Of a stretch of DNA of 64,000 nt, positions 2,870 through 48,002 are shown one piece after another (position 1 is the stretch's first letter; every line of letters begins with the position of its first letter). Position numbers and translations under genes: made by a program. Under the pieces are notes generated by a model. It saw only the letters and a list, made by a program, of their open reading frames with translations, did not search any database and was not told the origin of the DNA. The DNA comes from Naegleria gruberi (taxonomy: Eukaryota), in the NCBI GenBank assembly GCA_000004985.1, contig GG738880.1; one strand, given 5' to 3'.

Positions 2870-3337
2870 ATGAGCTCCAACAATCATCACAATAATAAGC
2901 AATTGGCCAGACAACACAGAACCAATAATTGGGTTGATACTTTCTTTGATGATCCATTCTTGAGAGCATTTGATAGATTTGATGATAGATTAGTTCCTGA
3001 ATTTAAACCAACCACTGATGTTTCTGAAACTGCAAATGAAGTTAAAATTGTTTGTAATGTTCCTGGTATGACAAAGGATGATTTAAAGATTGATATTGAT
3101 GAAGAGCATAGAACCATGACTGTCAGTGGTCATGTTGAAAAGGAAAAGAAGGAAGATAATGAAAGATATCACTGTGTTGAAAGATCACATGGTTCTTTCA
3201 GTAGAACTGTCTATTTACCACCAAATGCTGATTTTGATAAGGTCAAGGCAGCTTTGGAACATGGTGTTTTGAGAGTTACTATTCCAAAAGTAGTTGAAGA
3301 ACCAAAGAAAAAGACCAGATCAATTGATATTCAATAA
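2870..3337 (+). CDS. small heat-shock protein, Hsp20/alpha-crystallin domain family (155 aa)
   Basis: Alpha-crystallin-domain features: ...FDDPFLRAFDRFDD..., EVKIVCNVPGMTKDDLKIDIDEEHRTMTVSGH, RSHGSFSRTVYLPPNADFDKVKAALEHGVLRVTIPK. Intact ORF with an upstream TATA-like element. Confidence 0.9.
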   Translation: MSSNNHHNNKQLARQHRTNNWVDTFFDDPFLRAFDRFDDRLVPEFKPTTDVSETANEVKIVCNVPGMTKDDLKIDIDEEHRTMTVSGHVEKEKKEDNERYHCVERSHGSFSRTVYLPPNADFDKVKAALEHGVLRVTIPKVVEEPKKKTRSIDIQ

Positions 3338-3403
3338 TTGTTACTATTTTGTAAATAAATTTTTTGTAAAAATACGACCAATAAATTCTTTAAATTAATC
3401 TCT

Positions 3404-5650
3404 TTATTGTAAATTACGTTTACTTGGACTAGTTGGTGGTCGAACATCAACATCTTCGGCCAAGCTACTGCTTTGAAATAATCCAAATGATTTACGAAGA
3501 GAAAAACCAGAACTTGACATTGAACGAGCAGTTCTTGTGTGAATTTGACTCGGTGAGTGAAGTGGATTCGAGTAGAAATCGTCAAAATTGCGTTTTGATT
3601 TGTTACCTGTTGGAGAGCAAACTCTGAAATGTTGAGGAAACTTTTCAAAGTAATCAGTCTCATTACACAACAAATCAAAAGTAGATGAGGGAGTGGTTGG
3701 TGGGTTTGTCGTGTTAGAATTCTTAGAAGGAGAAGCTGGTGTGGAGTGTGGAGAATTAGGTAAAGGATGCAGAGATACTAATCCAGTTGAAATTAAATTG
3801 AAAATAATCTTTTGGAACGTATCCTTCTCTCCTCTAACACCAAGAATGTGAATGGAGGAAGTGCTTGTAGAACTTTGGTTGGCAGAATCAAGAGATTGAA
3901 CAGGCATCTCTTTGGCTTCTTTTTTACAATGCTTAGCGAGTGCAAAAGCAGCATAGAAAATTGGAGGTCTATTCTTGGTATCGGCAGAATTCAAAACTTT
4001 GAGAGAGGTTGGTGTGTTTGGAATGAGGTTCTGAATTTGAATTATTGGAGTGTTAAATGAGGGAGATGAGGGCGGTGATTTAATTAGAATAGAATTGTAT
4101 GAATCTCCATTCCTTGGTTGTTTGATAGTGATTGGAATGGAAGTAGTGGTTGTGGCACATGAAATTGAAGTCAGAGGAGAAGGAGGAGAGGTAATCTTGT
4201 TTTGTTCTTTTTGAGGAATGGCATTTGAGCACATTAATATAATTGTTTCTACAACATTGATTGAACCTTGTTTGCATGCCAAGTGTAAAGGGGTGAGACC
4301 AGTATTGTCTTTCATCATTAATTGCTCCATATAAAATTCTGTATCAAACATGAGAGCAATCAATCTGAAAAAGTCTGCACAATCATGGACTGCAGCAATA
4401 TGAAGAGTGGTTCTCTTCATTGAGTCAATTGGGGCATGATTACTACCAGATGAGTTTTGAGATGAAATCTCTGCCATCAGCAAGTACATCAAGCATACTT
4501 GCTTTTCAGCTGGTGTTTTGGATACTGTTGATCGATATTCCTTGATGGCTAACATGAGTGGTGTCAAACCATTTTCTTCCTTTGCTTGAATAAGAACTTT
4601 TCCATGAGCACTCAATCTTAATTCCATATTGGAAGTGTCTCCAGTTAATATTGAACTAGTTTCTTGCTCTGGTGACATTGATGTACAGCACATATCTTGC
4701 AAACATTCTCTGTACATTAATTCATCCAAATCATGATCTGATTCATCAACTTCTTCTGTTTTTGACTTTTTCTTATTTCTCTCTTTGATTAATTCATTTC
4801 TTTCCAGGAGTAAAAGTTTCATTCCTTCAATATCATAGTTGGAAGCAGCTAAATGCAGTAAACTTCTGGAATTTGTCGACTTCTTCGTCCGTATTGAATT
4901 AGTTGGCAATATTCCCAACAAGAACCTCACAACCTCAAGTCTACCATTTTGCATTGCTAATAAGAGAGGAGTATTTCCAAAGATATCCCTACTATCCAAG
5001 CTCTCTTTTGCTTGGGAGAAGAGTAAATTGACAACTAAAACATTACCACTAGCAGCTGCATAATGGAATGGTGTGGCCAGAGAAGCATCTACACAATATT
5101 TGTCTACATCACTCCTCAGCAGTAGCTCCCTCGTAATGCAAATGTGTCCATAAGCACATGCCTTATGTAGAGCAGTTGCCCTCCTCTCATCTCTCACATT
5201 GATATCGAAAAAGTTGAAATCCTTGTTGTTGAAATCTTGTTCATGACTATTCCCAAGTTTTTTATCGAGAACATCTATTAATTGTTTGAATAATAGCAAA
5301 TCTCCATTAGTACACGAATATAAGAAGAGGTGTTTCCATTCATAACCACTCAATTCGGAATACTCATTCTCTTGTGGTTTTCTTGTTTTTTGTTTTTTAG
5401 GTTGCTGATTCTGGTTTGATGTTGTTGTTTCATCAGTGTTAGTATTAGTGGTGATTGAAGTAGTTATTATTGTTGAATTTGCTGTATTTGATGAAGTGGA
5501 AACGTCCACAGTTTCGTCTAGATTTGTTTCGTCTGATGAGGCATTGAATACATTATTTTCTTCATAAAGTAAAAGTGAAGGAGATGTATTAGACATTGTT
5601 ACCCCACTACTACTGAGTACTATTGTTGAAATGGACAAGTCTGACAACAT
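3404..5650 (-). CDS. ankyrin-repeat protein (748 aa) with Asn/Ser/Thr-rich low-complexity tails
   Basis: Several ANK-repeat signatures: ATALHKACAYGHICITRELL, TPFHYAAASGNVLVVNLLF, GNTPLLLAMQNGRLEVVRFLL, LTPLMLAIKEY, TTLHIAAVHDCADFFRLI, LTPLHLACKQGSINVVETII. Confidence 0.85.
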   Translation of the reverse strand: MLSDLSISTIVLSSSGVTMSNTSPSLLLYEENNVFNASSDETNLDETVDVSTSSNTANSTIITTSITTNTNTDETTTSNQNQQPKKQKTRKPQENEYSELSGYEWKHLFLYSCTNGDLLLFKQLIDVLDKKLGNSHEQDFNNKDFNFFDINVRDERRATALHKACAYGHICITRELLLRSDVDKYCVDASLATPFHYAAASGNVLVVNLLFSQAKESLDSRDIFGNTPLLLAMQNGRLEVVRFLLGILPTNSIRTKKSTNSRSLLHLAASNYDIEGMKLLLLERNELIKERNKKKSKTEEVDESDHDLDELMYRECLQDMCCTSMSPEQETSSILTGDTSNMELRLSAHGKVLIQAKEENGLTPLMLAIKEYRSTVSKTPAEKQVCLMYLLMAEISSQNSSGSNHAPIDSMKRTTLHIAAVHDCADFFRLIALMFDTEFYMEQLMMKDNTGLTPLHLACKQGSINVVETIILMCSNAIPQKEQNKITSPPSPLTSISCATTTTSIPITIKQPRNGDSYNSILIKSPPSSPSFNTPIIQIQNLIPNTPTSLKVLNSADTKNRPPIFYAAFALAKHCKKEAKEMPVQSLDSANQSSTSTSSIHILGVRGEKDTFQKIIFNLISTGLVSLHPLPNSPHSTPASPSKNSNTTNPPTTPSSTFDLLCNETDYFEKFPQHFRVCSPTGNKSKRNFDDFYSNPLHSPSQIHTRTARSMSSSGFSLRKSFGLFQSSSLAEDVDVRPPTSPSKRNLQ

Positions 5651-12365: not shown

Positions 12366-12485
12366 TGGCTACGGCCATATCACGATGAATGCACCTCATC
12401 CCGTCCGATTTGAGAAGTTAAGCATCGTCGAGCCACATCAGTACTGAGGTTGGAGACAACTTGGGAACCTGTGGTGCTGTAGTCT
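12366..12485 (+). rRNA. 5S ribosomal RNA gene
   Basis: GGCTACGGCCATATCACGATGAATGCACCTCATCCCGTCCGATTTGAGAAGTTAAGCATCGTCGAGCCACATCAGTACTGAGGTTGGAGACAACTTGGGAACCTGTGGTGCTGTAGTCT matches the universal 5S blocks (GCCTACGGCCATAC, CCCGTCCGAT, GAAGTTAAGC, AGTACT, TGGGAA, GGTGCTGTAG). The 5' and 3' ends can pair as helix I. A T5 run follows. Confidence 0.85.
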
Positions 12486-18102: not shown

Positions 18103-19410
18103 TTGTTCAATAACAAGATGGATAACAAGGAAAATAATTCATCACTACAAGAAAAGCATCTCTTGGAAAAATCACCAAAAGATATGACTCATGAAGAGTT
18201 GGTTAAAATTGCCACTCTCTATCAAGAGGAAAAGAGAAAATCGGAATCTGGAAACAAGCAAAATAAAAAGAAAAAGAAGAAGAAGGAGCAAGTTATAGAT
18301 TGGAGTACACAGACCTATAGACACATTGCTTTAAAGATTGCCTATCTTGGTTTTAATTATCAAGGATTATCGAAACAGCTTCACACTCCCAACACAATTG
18401 AACATCATCTTTTTGAAGCTTTGAAAACTTTAAAACTTATAGAGCACGAGGATAATTGTGAATTTACTAAATGTGGAAGAACTGATAAGGGTGTCTCTGC
18501 ACTTGGTCAAGTTGTCTCATTCAATTGTAGATATAATCCAAAGAAGAATGACTATGTTAGACTCATCAATAGTTTACTTCCAGACGATATTAGAGTATTA
18601 GCCTGGTGTCCAGTTTCCAAAGATTTTGATGCAAGATTTGGATGCCTCCAAAGAACATACAAATACTATTTCATACGACAAAATTTAAATATTGAAAAGA
18701 TGAAACAAGCTGCTGCTCATTTTGTTGGTGAGCATGATTTTAGAAATTTCTGTAAAATTAATGAAGAGGTAACAAACTTTAGAAGAAGAATTTTGAGTAT
18801 GGAAATTATCAAATCTGATCTATTACATCAGCAACATGGAAATGATGAGTATTTTGAAATTTATGAAATTGTAGTTTGTGGAACATCATTTTTGTGGCAT
18901 CAAGTTAGATGCATGACAGCAATTCTATTCCTTATTGGTGAAGGAAAAGAGGAACCTTCTGTCATTCCAGAATTATTAGATATTGAAAAGTACAAGGCAC
19001 GTCCAGTTTATCATATTGCATCAGAATTTCCACTTGTTTTATATGATTGTGTTTTTGAGGATTTGAAATGGATTCACACCAATGACATGATTTCATCTCA
19101 AGCCGATTTAACAAATCATTTCTATGAAATGTGGAGAAGTAGTTCATTGAAATCGACCATGTACAACATCTTTTATCAAGCTGCAAACAATACTCTAGTG
19201 GATAATAGTAATACATTTGGAAAAGATCTCAATACTAATGTGGATTCGAACACTGAAGATGCAACAAGAAAATATACAACTGTCAAGAAAGCTGTCAAGG
19301 CTATGAAACCAATTCAGAGAGGTCCCAAATATGTCAAGTTATTAGAAAGGCCAAGAGCCTTCTCTTTAGAGGAGTGTGTTGAAAGTTCCAAGAAGAAAAG
19401 AAAACAGTAG
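18103..19410 (+). CDS. tRNA pseudouridine synthase, TruA family (Pus3/Deg1-like), 435 aa
   Basis: YRHIALKIAYLGFNYQGLSKQ..., catalytic block CGRTDKGVSALGQVVSF (TruA RTDKGVHA motif with the catalytic Asp), ...RVLAWCPVSKDFDARF, ...FVGEHDFRNFCK..., LWHQVRCM. There is an N-terminal Lys-rich extension. Confidence 0.85.
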   Translation: MFNNKMDNKENNSSLQEKHLLEKSPKDMTHEELVKIATLYQEEKRKSESGNKQNKKKKKKKEQVIDWSTQTYRHIALKIAYLGFNYQGLSKQLHTPNTIEHHLFEALKTLKLIEHEDNCEFTKCGRTDKGVSALGQVVSFNCRYNPKKNDYVRLINSLLPDDIRVLAWCPVSKDFDARFGCLQRTYKYYFIRQNLNIEKMKQAAAHFVGEHDFRNFCKINEEVTNFRRRILSMEIIKSDLLHQQHGNDEYFEIYEIVVCGTSFLWHQVRCMTAILFLIGEGKEEPSVIPELLDIEKYKARPVYHIASEFPLVLYDCVFEDLKWIHTNDMISSQADLTNHFYEMWRSSSLKSTMYNIFYQAANNTLVDNSNTFGKDLNTNVDSNTEDATRKYTTVKKAVKAMKPIQRGPKYVKLLERPRAFSLEECVESSKKKRKQ

Positions 19411-20356: not shown

Positions 20357-21517
20357 ATGCCGAAGGAATCAAAGAAGAAGAAGAATAATACTAAAATTGA
20401 AATCACTCACGAGATGATGGTAAGTAAACGAAATTCACATCCGTCGTCAACTTTATCATAATGTAAAGAAACCATACTTTTACTGTCCTCAAACTCTTGC
20501 TGCAAGATTATTGGGAGTCAGCATTAGCACATTGAAGAGAAGATTTTATGATCTCCATATTGGAAGGTAAGTTTTCCATACTGGAATCAGCCCAGTTCAA
20601 TTATTGTTATTACTATTATATTGTAACACGTCATTTATATTTTTCATAATAACCAACATGTTTGTAAAAACTAACACGGTTTCTGAAATATTTCACAATC
20701 CAATACAATTCTGTTACTTGATCGTTAACAATATAGATGGCCATATCAATGCATCTCTTTAAGTGAAAGAAAGAAGAGTATCTACTTTCTTATGAATGAA
20801 ACTGAACCTGAGGATGAAAAGGAAATTGATGAAAAGACAATGCATCACCTCAGACATGCATTCAAAGATGCTAGTAAGCCACTTCTCTCAATGAATGTTA
20901 ATCAAACCACTCAATTCCACTTTTGCTCATTCGTTGCTCAAGAAGAAGAAAATGCCAACTCTGACCATTCCAATTCCTTCCAAGAATCCAATGGAAAGGC
21001 CTTCACTGCACAAGGTCAAGCTCCACATCTTGGTGGTGGCAATGGAAAGAAGATTGTTATGCGTGAGATGGAACTTGGTAAAAAGGAAATGATACAACGT
21101 TCCAAGTCATCTCATTCATTGAGTTCTCTTTCTGGAGATAACCATCCACCCTACCACCCTTACAACTCCCCTGCTTTGACCGCTTTTCCATTGAAAAAGT
21201 CTTGTGCGGTCAGTGATAATGCTTCCAATATGTTGACTAATACCTATACTACTCAACCTCATGGTATTAGTGCATTATCATCTAACATTAAGACTTTTTC
21301 ACCTACCTCACCACACGGTGTTTGGCAGAGTTGCAATACTATGAGTTTGTCAGTTAACTATCCTTCACAATGTTACGTTTCACAACACTCACCATTGAGT
21401 TGTGGAACAACAAACTCTTCCTCTCCAAATTCTCCTCCAGCAATAATGTTTGGAATGGGTCACGAAAATCATGTCATTTTGCCTGAGATTCGTATTCAAG
21501 ACACCATTCAACATTAA
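20357..21517 (+). CDS. RWP-RK domain protein, 3 exons (20357..20419, 20469..20566, 20737..21517)
   Basis: Exon 1 ATG..GAGATGATG|GTAAGT. A 49-nt intron ends ..gtaaAG. Exon 2 encodes KPYFYCPQTLAARLLGVSISTLKRRFYDLHIGR, which is the RWP-RK core (compare the paralog at 24482). Its donor is AG|GTAAGT. A 170-nt intron ends ..aatatAG. Exon 3 begins in phase (R)WPYQCISL... and runs in frame into ORF 20792..21517. Confidence 0.7.
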
Positions 21518-21781
21518 GCTGTGTTGGTGACAAATTACATCATTGAATTCAATTGCATTCAATGATGAGCATTTATATATACCTCAAACTCTGTGTATTC
21601 CAGTTGGAGAGGACGAAAACCTAGCTGTAATTTATTGCTATCAATTACAGAATGTTGACAGTTCAACTCCATGAGAACCTTCTCTTTAGCTGTGGAATAC
21701 AATCAGTGTAAACAACAACAAAACAATCCTAATAAATTATTTATTCACTTAAAAAGATCTTTTGAATGGTTTTATAAGATT

Positions 21782-21850
21782 CGGTTTTTATTGAGCGACT
21801 ACAGCTATTTACTGTAAAGATTTAGGTGGGTACGGCGACATAAAATCCCC
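21782..21850 (+). repeat. copy A of a ~70-nt conserved noncoding element (candidate small ncRNA or cis-element)
   Basis: cGGTTTTTATTGAGCGACTACAGcTATTTACTGTAAAGATTTaGGTGGGTAcggCGACataAAAatcccc. It is nearly identical over ~45 nt to copy B at 23459. Confidence 0.4.
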
Positions 21851-23458
21851 ATTTTATTGCTCGAGATCTAAGGAATGATCTTAAAAGTGTTTTCAGGTAA
21901 TTAGCGAATTCATTTTCATTAAAAGGATATGGGTGATCGATCTCCTTCACCAATCTTACTGCATAGGGAATAAACATTCAGGTTGAGCAAGAATCTTAAA
22001 ACCATACGATGCAATTATTTTTTGTGATTGTGAAATTCTATTGGTGATGGTTCACATTATCTGAAAGTGATTCTGCACTGCTTTTCAAATCCACTTCTCG
22101 TTTGAATTAAATACTGTCATCAATTATCGCTCATTGTCTACACTTGGAGGAACATATGACAACTCAATGAAGAATTTTTGTAATTCAGACATATTGAAGA
22201 ATTGAGAAAATGTTTTTTAAATCCATGACCATCTCTTTCTAAGGGAAAATGTAAAGCAGTCAGTCCAAAAGAATTTGTTAAAATTGTGTGGAATCTTAAT
22301 ATTGATTTTCAATCCACTGTAGAGCTTTTAATTCTGAAATATGTTAATTGACCATAAACGCGCATCATTCGCCAACCTGTCAACAATCATGCCATAAATC
22401 CTTAATTAAACGCTGCTAAACATTCCAGTTGCATTAATCCAATAATTGTAAAGGAAGAGGCTTTGTTTCGAATGCTAATTTCTTCAGTTGATTCCCAAAG
22501 GTTTCGATGGTGATGGAATTTTTTTGAGTTTTCTATTGAAAAGATGAAACAATTATTTGCTTCGACACTCCTCAGAATAAGCAAACTCAAATAAAACAAT
22601 GTGGTCAGAGGTTTGGATTTCTATTGATTAAACAAATAGAAATTAACCCAAAAAAGAGCAACTCCCGTTCGATCCCAAAACTAAAAAGATTCTTGTCATA
22701 AATGGTCAGGATTTCAACCGATCTAGATTTTGTTAGATATCAAATCAAATATTACATCCTGCCGCTATCCAGGCAAGAATTCATATGTTAACCCAATGTT
22801 AATGGTACTTAACTCTTTTCAAATCAATTAAGAAACAGATCTAAGATTTCTTCCGCTTCCATAGAACTAGGAAATTGTTTACCAAATACTCAACAAAAGA
22901 AAGCAACTCCACACCATCTAGAGGAAGAACATCCTCAAATTCTAGCTGTCATCATTTGTCTAATTTTGAGAATGGTAATCCAATAGAAAAATAATATCTA
23001 ATTTTTAGGAACAAGATAACGGATTGGAAGTGTAGCATGTTGGTGATGACTCTTTTCTCATTGAGTGGGCTGTGCTTAATTGAAACATCAGAAATTCAGT
23101 TGTAGTTACTGAATTGCAAAGTTGAAGATTCACATCATCGATCCTTCTCTCCACAACAAGAGGAGAAGAACCAAGTCAATTTTTGCTAAAATGTTCATTT
23201 CCTTGAAAATGATGTTGTTGCTTGTGTTTAAAACTCATTGTATTCTACAGCTCATTGAGAAGGTTCTTTTTGTGAGGATGATAATTGCCTCCGTAATCAA
23301 GAGTCAATAGTAACTTTACACTACAGGAAGATAACCAGCACCCAGGTAGTGAGAATAGTGAGAAAATGAGAGTTGTGTGTAAAGGCTCATTCAAAAGCCT
23401 CATGAATGGTCCAGAAATGATATCGTAGTTGAATATTAGGATGCTCCAAGGTCAAGAT

Positions 23459-23536
23459 ACGGTTTTTATTGAGCGACTACAGTTATTTACTGTAAAGATT
23501 TGTGGTGGGTATTATGCGACGCAAAAAAATCACCGT
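23459..23536 (+). repeat. copy B of the same ~70-nt element
   Basis: acGGTTTTTATTGAGCGACTACAGtTATTTACTGTAAAGATTTgtGGTGGGTAttatgCGACgcAAAAaaatcaccgt. The 5' ACGGTTTTT can pair with the 3' AAAAAAA..CCGT, closing the element with a terminal stem. Confidence 0.4.
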
Positions 23537-24481
23537 CTCAGTTCAGTCATCATCCAATCCTGGACAAAACATTCGAGTCAACTCGTTGCCAAAAATGCAT
23601 TGACTTTCTTTGTGAGTTATAGACAGTCATCCTTCACTATTTTGCATTCCTTCCTTGGTTCTAATGTTGAATTACAACGAAACGCAGAGTAATCATTAGC
23701 CAAAGATTTGTATCGAATCCTTTAAAGATTTCTTCAGTTCCACTTGCTGTTTTCGAAAAATTTGACGCTCAACCCCATCTAAGCCATTAAAAAATCAGAT
23801 TATGCCTTCGTTTAAATACCATTTATGGATGGCGAACAAATAAAAAACCAGAATCTCAGTTTGCAACCCAGAAATTTCTAACAATATCGTTGTATTCTTC
23901 GTTGATGGATTATGTTGTTGATTAGCTGCATCTAATCATCAAGAGATATGAAATAATAAATAGAAAGACTTGCTCCTTACAAGGTTTGTAGATTTCAGTT
24001 AATTTACATTTTACCTCGTATCATATACCAATGTTTGACCTTCATACAGCAAAAATATCAAAACCCACGCTACAAAAAACAGAGATTGCAATAAAGCATC
24101 TGGAGTAATTCCAAATGTGTAAAATCCTTCGCCCTCTAGTGACCATATTTAGATAGAATCAGCGAAAATTTTTGGTCGTGCCTATTCCACATAAATTCTG
24201 GCCCACACAGAAAAACAGCAACATGAAGCATAAATGAAAATCCGTACAGATGCATTATAAAACCCTCTCCGAACCATTGGCTCACTCTTCTCACTTTAAA
24301 AAAACAAAACAACAATAACAACTATCACTGACCACAGTAATACTACTATTACGTGTCATTTCAAAGATACTTTAAACCACCGCAATTATTTCACTCTCTC
24401 ACGTGTAAGCCAACTAAGTAACCTTCCAAACACAAGAAAAATCAAAAAGTTACCAACCTACTACTGCTAATACCCAACACA

Positions 24482-25315
24482 ATGATCAGTCAACATACCT
24501 CATTAAATTATTCATCGAGTAATACTAATACATGTATTCCATCACATTATAGCAGACCACTTTCACCTCCAACTAATACATCACTTCCTTCGATACATTC
24601 CCTGAAAGAATTTTCTCATCAACCACAATACTCTCAGAGTTGTCCAGTTAGAACAGCAACCCATACTAATTCACAATATCCTCACCACTACTATCCTTTG
24701 ACCCATCACCATACTAATATTGATCAACAATATGCCTATGCCCCTGTAAATAATACTACCAATCTTTACCATAATAACAGTAATAGTAGTCATTCAGATG
24801 CTCTGTCGAGTGAAGACAGCAACACATCTAATCAGCATGTAAATAGAACTTCTCCTTCCCCAATTAAAGTTAAGAATAACAAGTCAGATAACAAACAAAA
24901 AGTGAAATCTCCAAATACTACTAATGCTCCTAATACTACTAATGGTATCAAAAAGAAGAGAAAGACTAAAAAGAATAAGATTATCATTGCAACTTCTGAA
25001 TTGGTTAGATGCATGACTTTACCACAAACAGTAGCTGCTAAAAAACTGAAAGTTTCTCTCAGTACTTTGAAGAGACGTTTCTATGAATTGAGTGTTGGAA
25101 GATGGCCATCAATTGCTCCAACAAATGAACCTGGATCTTCCTCAAAGACTGAAGAAGACATGTATGTGGAAAGTACAGATGCTACACCAGAACAAAAACT
25201 TTCACTTTCATTCATTATGAATAAGAAAGAATGTCCAGAATCGAGTGTAATTGATAATCTTTCAATGGTCATTCTGAAAGTTGCCTTTACTTTAAACACA
25301 AACGAAGAAAAATAA
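24482..25315 (+). CDS. RWP-RK domain protein, single exon (277 aa), paralog of 20357..21517
   Basis: Low-complexity N-terminus, a basic stretch KKKRKTKKNK, then ATSELVRCMTLPQTVAAKKLKVSLSTLKRRFYELSVGRWPSIAP, which is the RWP-RK motif. Confidence 0.8.
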   Translation: MISQHTSLNYSSSNTNTCIPSHYSRPLSPPTNTSLPSIHSLKEFSHQPQYSQSCPVRTATHTNSQYPHHYYPLTHHHTNIDQQYAYAPVNNTTNLYHNNSNSSHSDALSSEDSNTSNQHVNRTSPSPIKVKNNKSDNKQKVKSPNTTNAPNTTNGIKKKRKTKKNKIIIATSELVRCMTLPQTVAAKKLKVSLSTLKRRFYELSVGRWPSIAPTNEPGSSSKTEEDMYVESTDATPEQKLSLSFIMNKKECPESSVIDNLSMVILKVAFTLNTNEEK

Positions 25316-25783
25316 ATTAATTGTACATTGTAAAAATCAACTTTAACTGTTTCTACATTGAAAATCTCTTTGGATAATGAAATATTCAAATATTCAAATA
25401 TTCAAAATTATTCGTTTCGTTAATATTCTCAATTTATTGCACAAAACGCTATTCAAAAATATTCAGAATCTTTTTGCGTTAAAAAAATTTTGGATACCTA
25501 TCATCAGAATCACACAAGACTATCACGCACCAAGAAATTTTTTTATTCTTGCTGCCCTCTCCTCTTTCCTTCAGAAGGACGACACAACAAGCTATTACCA
25601 CAAAGAACACCCGATTATACAAAACACATTTATTTGTTGAATAGTAGTACTTGTTCTCTCTTACATTTCCCACCTAAAAAGATCTTTTGATCTAATTCCA
25701 TACCCTATTTTCATCGTCATCATTGCTCCTTCTCCTTTTTAAAATTCCATAACAATTCCCTGTAGAAATAACTTCTTGCTACA

Positions 25784-47929: not shown

Positions 47930-48002
47930 TATACCCTGTGGGACTCGAACCCACAACCCCCGGCTCCGTAGGCCGATGCTCTTCCAATTGAGCCAAGGGT
48001 AC
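47930..48002 (-). tRNA. tRNA-Arg (anticodon ACG)
   Basis: Reverse complement: GTACCCT TG GCTC AATTGGAA GAGC A TCGGC CTACGGA GCCGG GGGTT GTGGG TTCGAGT CCCAC AGGGTAT A. All four stems pair, and the D-loop, T-loop (TTCGAGT) and anticodon loop are canonical. Confidence 0.85.

Follow-up and report, generated by a model that had tools for sequence, protein, structure and literature searches.

The window, that is, the whole 64,000-nt stretch of DNA analyzed here, comes from Naegleria gruberi (Heterolobosea, Discoba; G+C 34%), and a dictyostelid origin is excluded. Two RWP-RK genes lie in tandem within it, separated by a long noncoding spacer in which two short sequences, designated X and Y, each occur twice. 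The features of the locus are as follows.

20357..21517, plus strand: RWP-RK gene 1 (NAEGRDRAFT_80436), with exons at 20357-20419, 20469-20566 and 20737-21517
21518..24481, no strand: noncoding spacer from RWP-RK gene 1 to gene 2, 2,964 nt
21674..21714, plus strand: copy 1 of repeat Y, 61 nt upstream of X1
21776..21850, plus strand: copy 1 of repeat X (X1), a 48-nt core (21776-21823) and then a diverged 3' part
23225..23267, minus strand: copy 2 of repeat Y, inverted, 186 nt upstream of X2
23454..23534, plus strand: copy 2 of repeat X (X2), a 48-nt core (23454-23501) and then a diverged 3' part
24482..25315, plus strand: RWP-RK gene 2, intronless, 277 aa (Pfam RWP-RK, E = 8.1e-9)

The flanking genes had been predicted to be RWP-RK paralogs, and Pfam confirmed the domain in both. 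The splice model of gene 1 yields a 313-aa protein (Pfam RWP-RK, E = 1.5e-10) that matches N. gruberi protein P0059 at 100% identity, and both of its introns have GTAAGT donors. Gene 2 has orthologues at 58-68% identity in loci L004 and L005. The two proteins were found to be 38% identical across 89 aa. Elsewhere in the window, a 5S rRNA and a tRNA were the sole Rfam matches when the whole window was searched at gathering thresholds.

The description of the spacer as long and lacking a convincing open reading frame was upheld by several measures. Its ORFs are all at most 87 aa long. At 2,907 nt, it forms the largest stretch of the window without open frames of at least 110 codons, the runner-up measuring 1,458 nt, and by hexamer coding score all of its frames but one rank beneath the 5th percentile of true genes. 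A search of its 49 open frames against 5.8 billion proteins returned no match at E <= 1, and the spacer ORFs had no match in Pfam. Translated comparison with the orthologous spacers (tblastx) gave no match, and ARAGORN detected no tRNA in the spacer.

The RWP-RK tandem pair and a long spacer were also found to be kept in Naegleria lovaniensis (1,952 nt) and Naegleria fowleri (2,495 nt). In all three species this spacer is the largest local intergenic gap, and the outer neighbours of the pair vary among species. N. gruberi has the longest of the three spacers, by 0.5-1 kb. Between N. lovaniensis and N. fowleri, the spacers have in common only short collinear blocks of 74-88% identity, a pattern that would typically be expected of regulatory DNA, while k-mers common to all three spacers are no more frequent than chance. 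X and Y were absent from the N. lovaniensis and N. fowleri spacers in searches with blastn-short, blastn and nhmmer --max. As far as these sequence comparisons reach, X and Y are specific to the N. gruberi lineage relative to the other two species. A structured element of ~100 nt was observed downstream of RWP-RK gene 1 in N. lovaniensis and N. fowleri. Its covariance model (R1) had no match in N. gruberi. X does show a local match of 19/25 to the N. lovaniensis copy of that element (p ~0.015) and none to the N. fowleri copy; the match falls on positions that are not conserved with N. fowleri and is therefore probably due to chance, and homology between X and the element was rejected.

A repeat occurring twice in the same orientation about 1.68 kb apart had been proposed for the spacer, and this proposal proved correct. 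The cores of X1 and X2 are identical at 46/48 positions, in direct orientation and 1,678 nt apart, and blastn against the whole window aligned 58 nt of the copies at 93% identity (E = 2e-17). The string GG...ATTT quoted earlier was found at 21783 and 23461 with 0 mismatches, and shuffles of the window gave 0 such matches. The location given in the original prediction was right to within 1-2 nt, and the core quoted there is 41 nt long, not 45. Similarity runs on 3' of the core for ~30 nt with two indels (GGTGGGTA..GCGAC..AAAATC[C/A]CC), an extension that only 2/300 shuffles equalled or bettered, so that the units are 75-81 nt long. Beyond these sharp limits, no significant similarity between the two places was detected in the 300 nt upstream or the 300 nt downstream of the copies.

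The copies differ at 2/48 columns of the core and at 4/26 columns of the 3' part, which also holds the two indels. Divergence is roughly uniform along the unit (Fisher p = 0.18 for core against 3' part with substitutions alone, 0.046 with indels included). The difference in constraint between the two parts is only marginal and was therefore not taken as a sign of selection. Given the roughly uniform divergence, one moderately young duplication of ~80 nt suffices to explain X. No third copy of X was found in the 64-kb window. A first scan of metagenomes for X gave 0 matches, and a second gave 2 matches, both to one unrelated contig family (44% G+C) and limited to a 20-mer; of two viral scans, one gave 0 matches and the other 5 chance 17-mer matches. 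X contains the hairpin palindrome TACAG-N5-7-CTGTA. This palindrome is absent from the rest of the window and from the orthologous loci, so that no separate evidence points to reuse of a binding site. Protein coding was rejected for X, as the copies lie in different plus-strand frames and one frame is stopped. A minus-strand ORF that abuts X1 was likewise rejected as a gene, since it has no counterpart at X2.

In a comparison against the whole window, the inverted Y copies align over 43 nt at 84% identity (E = 7e-4), and nhmmer recovered just these two copies in the 64-kb window. The two places have unrelated sequence between Y and X, so a single simple duplication does not account for the layout. 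Y is flipped and its distance to X differs (61 against 186 nt), which fits DNA-level modules or a complex rearrangement, not a fixed unit of promoter plus gene.

On balance, the direct ~80-nt repeat X and the inverted 43-nt repeat Y probably represent patches of spacer DNA that underwent local duplication within the N. gruberi lineage, and not genes for RNA or protein. The copies may have arisen by patchy or template-switching duplication; alternatively, a larger duplication followed by rearrangement could have produced them. Patches of the MMBIR/FoSTeS type are similar in that they are short segments with sharp edges, here with a source 1.5-1.7 kb away and in both direct and inverted orientation. 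They differ from the present case in that X and Y are not adjacent, with 61 and 186 nt of unrelated sequence between them. Under local duplication, the duplicates may be neutral or may have been kept by selection; the neutral version is slightly preferred, and both are held tentatively.

The spacer itself would most plausibly be a control region of the RWP-RK genes. Its position is one that a cis-regulatory module would occupy: it is noncoding, lies between transcription-factor genes and is retained in three species. If X and Y have a function, they would act as DNA, as redundant sites that tolerate either orientation and to which regulators of the RWP-RK genes may bind. The original prediction had offered a shared enhancer of the two genes as its fallback; the retained pair and spacer and the flipped Y agree with this suggestion, and the role itself is one that we infer. 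Redundant (shadow) cis-regulatory modules close to developmental transcription-factor genes offer a parallel, with duplicated noncoding blocks, a long retained gap between transcription-factor genes and one block flipped. The X and Y blocks, however, are not conserved between Naegleria species.

Could X instead act at the RNA level, as part of a transcript? This appears unlikely. X might be a noncoding leader exon that ends at a splice donor (the core, then G/GTGGGTA), serving as an alternative first exon of RWP-RK gene 2 or as part of a long noncoding RNA, or it might be a sense-strand UTR element common to both RWP-RK mRNAs. In the stretch between gene 1 and X1, an AATAAA occurs at 21731-21736, ~40 nt upstream of X1. 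Both copies have the orientation of the two RWP-RK genes, their homology starts abruptly at the 5' end, as at a transcription start, and an invariant GGTGGGTA lies 1-2 nt 3' of the core in each. However, the putative donor GTGGGT is unlike the GTAAGT of both gene 1 introns, and the introns implied by a leader exon would be 0.9-2.6 kb long. TATA-like A/T-rich strings lie ~25-30 nt upstream of each X, but such strings are common at 34% G+C. A 20-mer that lies 10 nt upstream of X1 is found again 93 nt before the start codon of SNF2; this match is marginal and does not appear in the blastn list at E <= 0.05. Neither N. lovaniensis nor N. fowleri showed anything comparable to an X leader exon.

It is similarly improbable that X and Y represent transposon fragments, from an element (MITE-like or otherwise non-autonomous) with further copies elsewhere in the N. 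gruberi genome, two partial copies of which would have landed in the spacer. MITEs and other non-autonomous DNA transposons are bounded by terminal inverted repeats, flanked by a target-site duplication and dispersed in many copies. The recurrence of two unrelated short blocks together, with Y inverted, would suit such an origin, as would the sharp edges of X, the lineage specificity of both blocks and the additional 0.5-1 kb of the N. gruberi spacer. A 1.6-kb unit could also be drawn in which the plus-strand Y at 21674 and the minus-strand Y at 23267 form the imperfect 43-nt terminal inverted repeats. Yet X2 lies outside this putative unit, the Y ends carry no target-site duplication, and no third copy of X or Y exists within the 64 kb. 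The spacer frames have no transposase-like or other protein homology, and the metagenome and viral collections held no true matches to X.

The original prediction compared the repeat with small Pol II/III RNAs that have a closed stem, such as the dictyostelid Class I RNAs. On this reading, X1 and X2 would be paralogous genes for a small structured RNA, noncoding and 70-80 nt long, whose ends pair in a terminal stem. We regard this as very unlikely. The 5' region of X is well conserved, a hairpin of 5-6 bp (TACAG..CTGTA) is kept in both copies, and complementarity of the ends was likewise found in both. In X1, a stem joining the 5' and 3' ends is favoured over shuffled sequence: 7.5 end-to-end pairs are expected, a value that 0.3% of shuffles attain. 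The closing stem is not favoured in X2, however (0.98 expected pairs, attained by 33% of shuffles), and RNAalifold recovered only an invariant hairpin of 5-7 bp on both strands, without the terminal stem. The predicted terminal stem thus held as complementarity in both copies, and as a favoured closing stem in X1 only. The paired positions are invariant and thus show no covariation, and with its 5' strand unchanged the closing stem leaves no room for compensatory change. Folding energies were equally unremarkable, with z-scores of -0.15 and -0.60 on the plus strand and -1.2 and -1.6 on the minus strand; no MFE z-score of X was significant on either strand in any of several frames.

Signals of expression and family membership also argue against a small structured RNA. 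A Pol III small RNA gene has a terminator of at least 4 T just after the RNA. X1 is followed by a T4 run (21852-21855), but X2 has no run of at least 4 T for ~60 nt downstream, and no Pol III terminator is common to the copies. The sole upstream block common to both is Y, yet it is flipped and at a different distance. No match of X to Rfam was found at E <= 10; a cmscan of 21500-24500 against all Rfam 15 families at the same threshold gave only a chance cis-regulatory match elsewhere in the spacer, and Rfam snoRNA families had no match in the N. gruberi spacer. A snoRNA is recognized by C/D boxes (RUGAUGA, CUGA) or by a hairpin and an ACA box 3 nt from the end. Inspection of either strand of both copies revealed neither C/D nor H/ACA boxes, and A/B boxes were likewise not seen. 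Nor is X conserved in the other two Naegleria species, N. lovaniensis and N. fowleri.

Class I RNAs (Rfam RF01414) are known from Dictyostelia only and were not found by the authors outside that group (PMC7919456). Their genes carry a DUSE ([AT]CCCA[CT]AA) ~60 nt upstream, and all members have a short stem of the 5' and 3' ends with compensatory changes and a conserved 11-nt motif beside the 5' half of the stem (PMC7919456). The median length is ~60 nt, and each dictyostelid genome has 18-39 expressed genes (PMC7919456). X is similar in being short and A/T-rich, in beginning with AAG and containing CUGU, and in that the two ends of X1 can pair in a short stem. It differs in its host, which belongs to Discoba and not Amoebozoa, in its length of 75-81 nt, in having two copies found and a stem not present in both, and in lacking a match to RF01414 and a DUSE. 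The UACAGC of X may resemble the 11-nt motif, and it lies ~15 nt from the putative stem. The DUSE has six matches in the window, against 9.1 expected by chance; the nearest is >5 kb from the spacer, and the upstream DUSE-like motif that the comparison called for occurs nowhere in the spacer. With no Rfam match, no DUSE, poor folds, an unshared stem, no common T-run and a Naegleria host, the Class I-like assignment is unsupported.

It seems far-fetched that X serves as the 5' exon in a leader-type RNA, with the conserved 48-nt block running up to a GU donor (G/GUGGGUA) and being spliced onto other transcripts, in cis as an alternative first exon or, more radically, in trans as a spliced-leader-like RNA. 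Heterolobosea are the sister lineage of the trans-splicing Euglenozoa, and we know of no report of trans-splicing in Naegleria. A spliced-leader RNA consists of a mini-exon followed by a GU donor, has an Sm-binding U-run in its intron part and is encoded by many tandem gene copies. X resembles the spliced-leader RNA genes of Euglenozoa in its conserved 5' block, directly followed by a conserved octamer that starts with GU (GGTGGGTA), and its ACAG-U-rich-CUGUA hairpin may resemble the kinetoplastid and diplonemid mini-exon. Unlike those genes, it has an Sm-like U-run after X1 only, two copies that are not in tandem and no Rfam match. Finally, X was rejected as a relic of the RWP-RK gene duplication: the genes had already duplicated before the genus arose, their products share 38% identity against ~90% for X, and X is absent from N. 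lovaniensis and N. fowleri.

As such, the X/Y repeat matters little: it is species-specific, low in copy number and without sign of an encoded RNA or protein. Its context is of more use. Ancient RWP-RK paralogues are still found in tandem, with the largest local gap between them, across three deeply diverged Naegleria species. To our knowledge, gene regulation in Naegleria is almost unstudied and its regulatory architecture essentially undescribed. Since the pair and its large gap are retained in three species, the spacer is a reasonable place to seek regulatory DNA, and within it X and Y are defined candidates for regulatory tests.

The two RWP-RK genes of the window stand in tandem and are separated by a spacer of 2,964 nt (21518-24481).

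20357-20419, 20469-20566 and 20737-21517, exons of RWP-RK gene 1, Pfam RWP-RK domain in the spliced form
24482-25315, RWP-RK gene 2, Pfam RWP-RK domain

The gene 1 protein matches NAEGRDRAFT_80436 of Naegleria gruberi at 100% identity and shares just 38% identity over 89 aa with the gene 2 protein. The SNF2 gene adjoining gene 2 downstream encodes a product with 57% identity to an N. fowleri protein and 47% to an N. lovaniensis protein. The original prediction described the spacer as long and noncoding, and ORF, hexamer and protein searches bore this out. The spacer has no ORF longer than 87 aa and forms the longest stretch of the window without open frames of at least 110 codons (2,907 nt; the next is 1,458 nt). 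In the hexamer test all its frames but one score lower than the 5th percentile of chunks from real coding sequence, and a search of its 49 open frames of at least 30 codons against 5.8 billion sequences, N. gruberi proteins among them, gave no protein match at E <= 1. The exception, an open frame of 47 codons (21531-21671, +; hexamer score 0.385), comes straight after the gene 1 stop codon and is the only spacer frame within the range of real genes; no protein homologue of it was found. A 30-nt near-perfect palindrome with an 11-bp stem (CATCATTGAATTCAATTGCATTCAATGATG, 21538-21567) starts 21 nt past the same stop codon, and the fold z-score of the 83 nt around it was not significant. An exact 19-nt match between 22534-22552 and the region of a pseudouridine-synthase gene (18690-18708; E = 0.009) is probably due to chance.

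The spacer contains two direct copies of a repeat, X.

21776-21850, +, X1, a 48-nt core (21776-21823) followed by a 3' extension
23454-23534, +, X2, a 48-nt core (23454-23501) followed by a 3' extension

The repeat is real. Two same-orientation copies about 1.68 kb apart had been predicted, and a repeat scan placed the cores, AAGAT[T/A]CGGTTTTTATTGAGCGACTACAG[C/T]TATTTACTGTAAAGATTT, 1,678 nt apart in the same orientation with 46/48 identical positions. The core quoted in that prediction does match, at 21783 and 23461, though it is 41 nt long rather than 45; allowing 3 mismatches, this string has no third match in the 64-kb window, and a shuffled window gives none. A blastn search against the window aligns the copies over 58 nt at 93% identity (E = 2e-17). 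The likeness continues 3' of the core with two indels, through GGTGGGTA, GCGAC and AAAATC[C/A]CC, at a score matched by only 2/300 shuffles. Similarity was not significant in the 300 nt upstream (18/300 shuffles reach the score) or downstream (115/300), and the limits of X were set accordingly; the 5' edge of the homology is abrupt. The copies differ at 2/48 columns in the core and at 4/26, plus two indel events, in the 3' part (Fisher p = 0.18 for substitutions, 0.046 with indels). Divergence is thus roughly uniform, with no clear unevenness, and gives no evidence of selection. The palindrome TACAG-N5-7-CTGTA of X and its paired GCGAC have no other occurrence in the window or the orthologous loci.

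A second repeat, Y, lies upstream of both X copies, with its own copies inverted relative to each other.

21674-21714, +, Y copy 1
23225-23267, -, Y copy 2

The Y copies share 84% identity over 43 nt (E = 7e-4 against the whole window), and nhmmer found no copy beyond these two. They stand 61 nt from X1 and 186 nt from X2, in opposite orientations, and the stretches that separate Y from X at the two places are unrelated. The Y regions have positive fold z-scores and no RNA structure. A perfect GAAnnTTC inverted dimer lies inside Y. GAAnnTTC is the unit of heat-shock-factor sites, and the dimer is no more than a hint of such a link. A 20-mer, CAC[T/C]TAAAAAGATCTTTTGA, with an internal 12-nt perfect palindrome, occurs 10 nt upstream of X1 (21746-21765) and 93 nt upstream of the start codon of SNF2 (25671-25690). 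It has no third occurrence in the window with 3 mismatches allowed, and the pairwise match is statistically marginal. At the window's start, 1-341 is 100% identical to 3155-3495 over 341 nt and runs directly into an N run, which looks like an assembly-gap artefact and not a biological repeat.

The arrangement of the gene pair is shared across the genus. In N. lovaniensis (locus L004) and N. fowleri (locus L005) alike, a gene 2 orthologue stands in tandem behind the gene 1 orthologue, across spacers of 1,952 and 2,495 nt that are by far the largest intergenic gaps of their loci (other gaps, 131-1,019 nt). The pair's outer neighbours are not the same as in N. gruberi, and the pair with its spacer is therefore a retained unit. 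SNF2 adjoins gene 2 in N. gruberi and in N. lovaniensis lies about 20 kb from the pair on the same contig, on the opposite strand (PYSW02000028.1; loci L001 and L004); the neighbourhood was thus rearranged while the pair stayed together. Acrasis kona (locus L013) has a single RWP-RK homologue with short intergenic gaps around it. The gene duplication is older than the genus Naegleria. Searches of L004 and L005 with blastn-short, blastn and nhmmer --max detected neither X nor Y. The three spacers share 8-10-mers no more than by chance and gave no tblastx signal; five short collinear blocks, 74-88% identical, are common to those of N. lovaniensis and N. fowleri.

The simplest account, and on balance the probable one, is set at the DNA level: short patches would have been duplicated locally in the N. 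gruberi lineage, X directly and Y inverted, inside a genus-retained spacer whose most plausible role is that of a control region for two transcription-factor genes. Within this account, neutral duplicates are a tentative possibility, and regulatory modules kept by selection a slightly more doubtful one. The two are not separable here: a patchy layout with Y flipped suits both template switching and orientation-tolerant regulatory modules. X is not left over from the ancient duplication of the RWP-RK genes, its copies being too similar (about 90%) and too lineage-specific for that. Nor do the two copies share a reading frame for a protein.

Improbable by comparison is that X acts at the transcript level or as a leader exon that ends at GGTGGGTA. 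Transposon fragments are just as unlikely an explanation of X and Y; pattern scans of metagenomes and viruses found nothing, or matches confined to the queried 17-20-mer in unrelated sequence.

Least probable of all are small structured RNA genes. The original prediction likened X to the closed-stem Class I RNAs (RF01414 in Rfam), with a terminal stem in both copies. The 5'-GGUUUUU/A-rich-CC closing stem does dominate the X1 ensemble (7.5 end-to-end pairs expected, a value that 0.3% of shuffles reach), and its putative 5' strand is invariant between copies (n = 2). It is not dominant in X2 (0.98 pairs, equalled by 33% of shuffles), whose 3' CACC forms local pairs with GGUGG. A T4 run directly follows X1 and none follows X2. 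MFE z-scores are -0.15 and -0.60 on the + strand and -1.17 and -1.59 on the - strand, and neither strand has snoRNA boxes. RNAalifold retained the invariant TACAG..CTGTA hairpin alone on either strand. Nothing assigns X to an Rfam family, and at E <= 10 the spacer gave no relevant family and one chance cis-regulatory match away from X. The Class I-like promoter motif [AT]CCCA[CT]AA, also looked for, is absent from the spacer. The published description confines Class I RNAs to Dictyostelia (PMC7919456), whereas the host of X belongs to Heterolobosea, within Discoba. The RNA interpretation is thus unsupported, with nothing positive in favour of an RNA gene. Two RNA genes do occur elsewhere in the window, the first in a 1-kb ORF-free gap amid protein-coding genes.

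12367-12485, +, lone, complete 5S rRNA gene (105 bits)
47930-48002, -, tRNA-Arg(ACG) gene

A better RNA candidate than X lies outside the window, in the two related species.

L004:11783-11878, +, ~100-nt closed structure of N. lovaniensis
L005:11830-11936, +, ~100-nt closed structure of N. fowleri

It lies about 70-80 nt past the stop codon of the gene 1 orthologue and could be either an element of the 3' UTR or a small RNA. A U-run at its 3' end pairs with the 5' AAGAAAG, and the structure comprises a GUAGGG/CCCUAC stem, a distal hairpin and an invariant unpaired CUGCACUAGAGG(U/A)AUGAAC. Pairing in the distal hairpin is kept despite different sequence and length, and 5/25 pairs are changed on both sides between the species (+ strand z-scores, -2.2 and -4.2). 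No Rfam family matches it, and a covariance model of the structure found no N. gruberi counterpart.

To conclude, the repeat X is real and, as an object, ordinary: a local repeat of low copy number that may be a duplicated cis-regulatory module. It is a fresh instance of a familiar kind of object.
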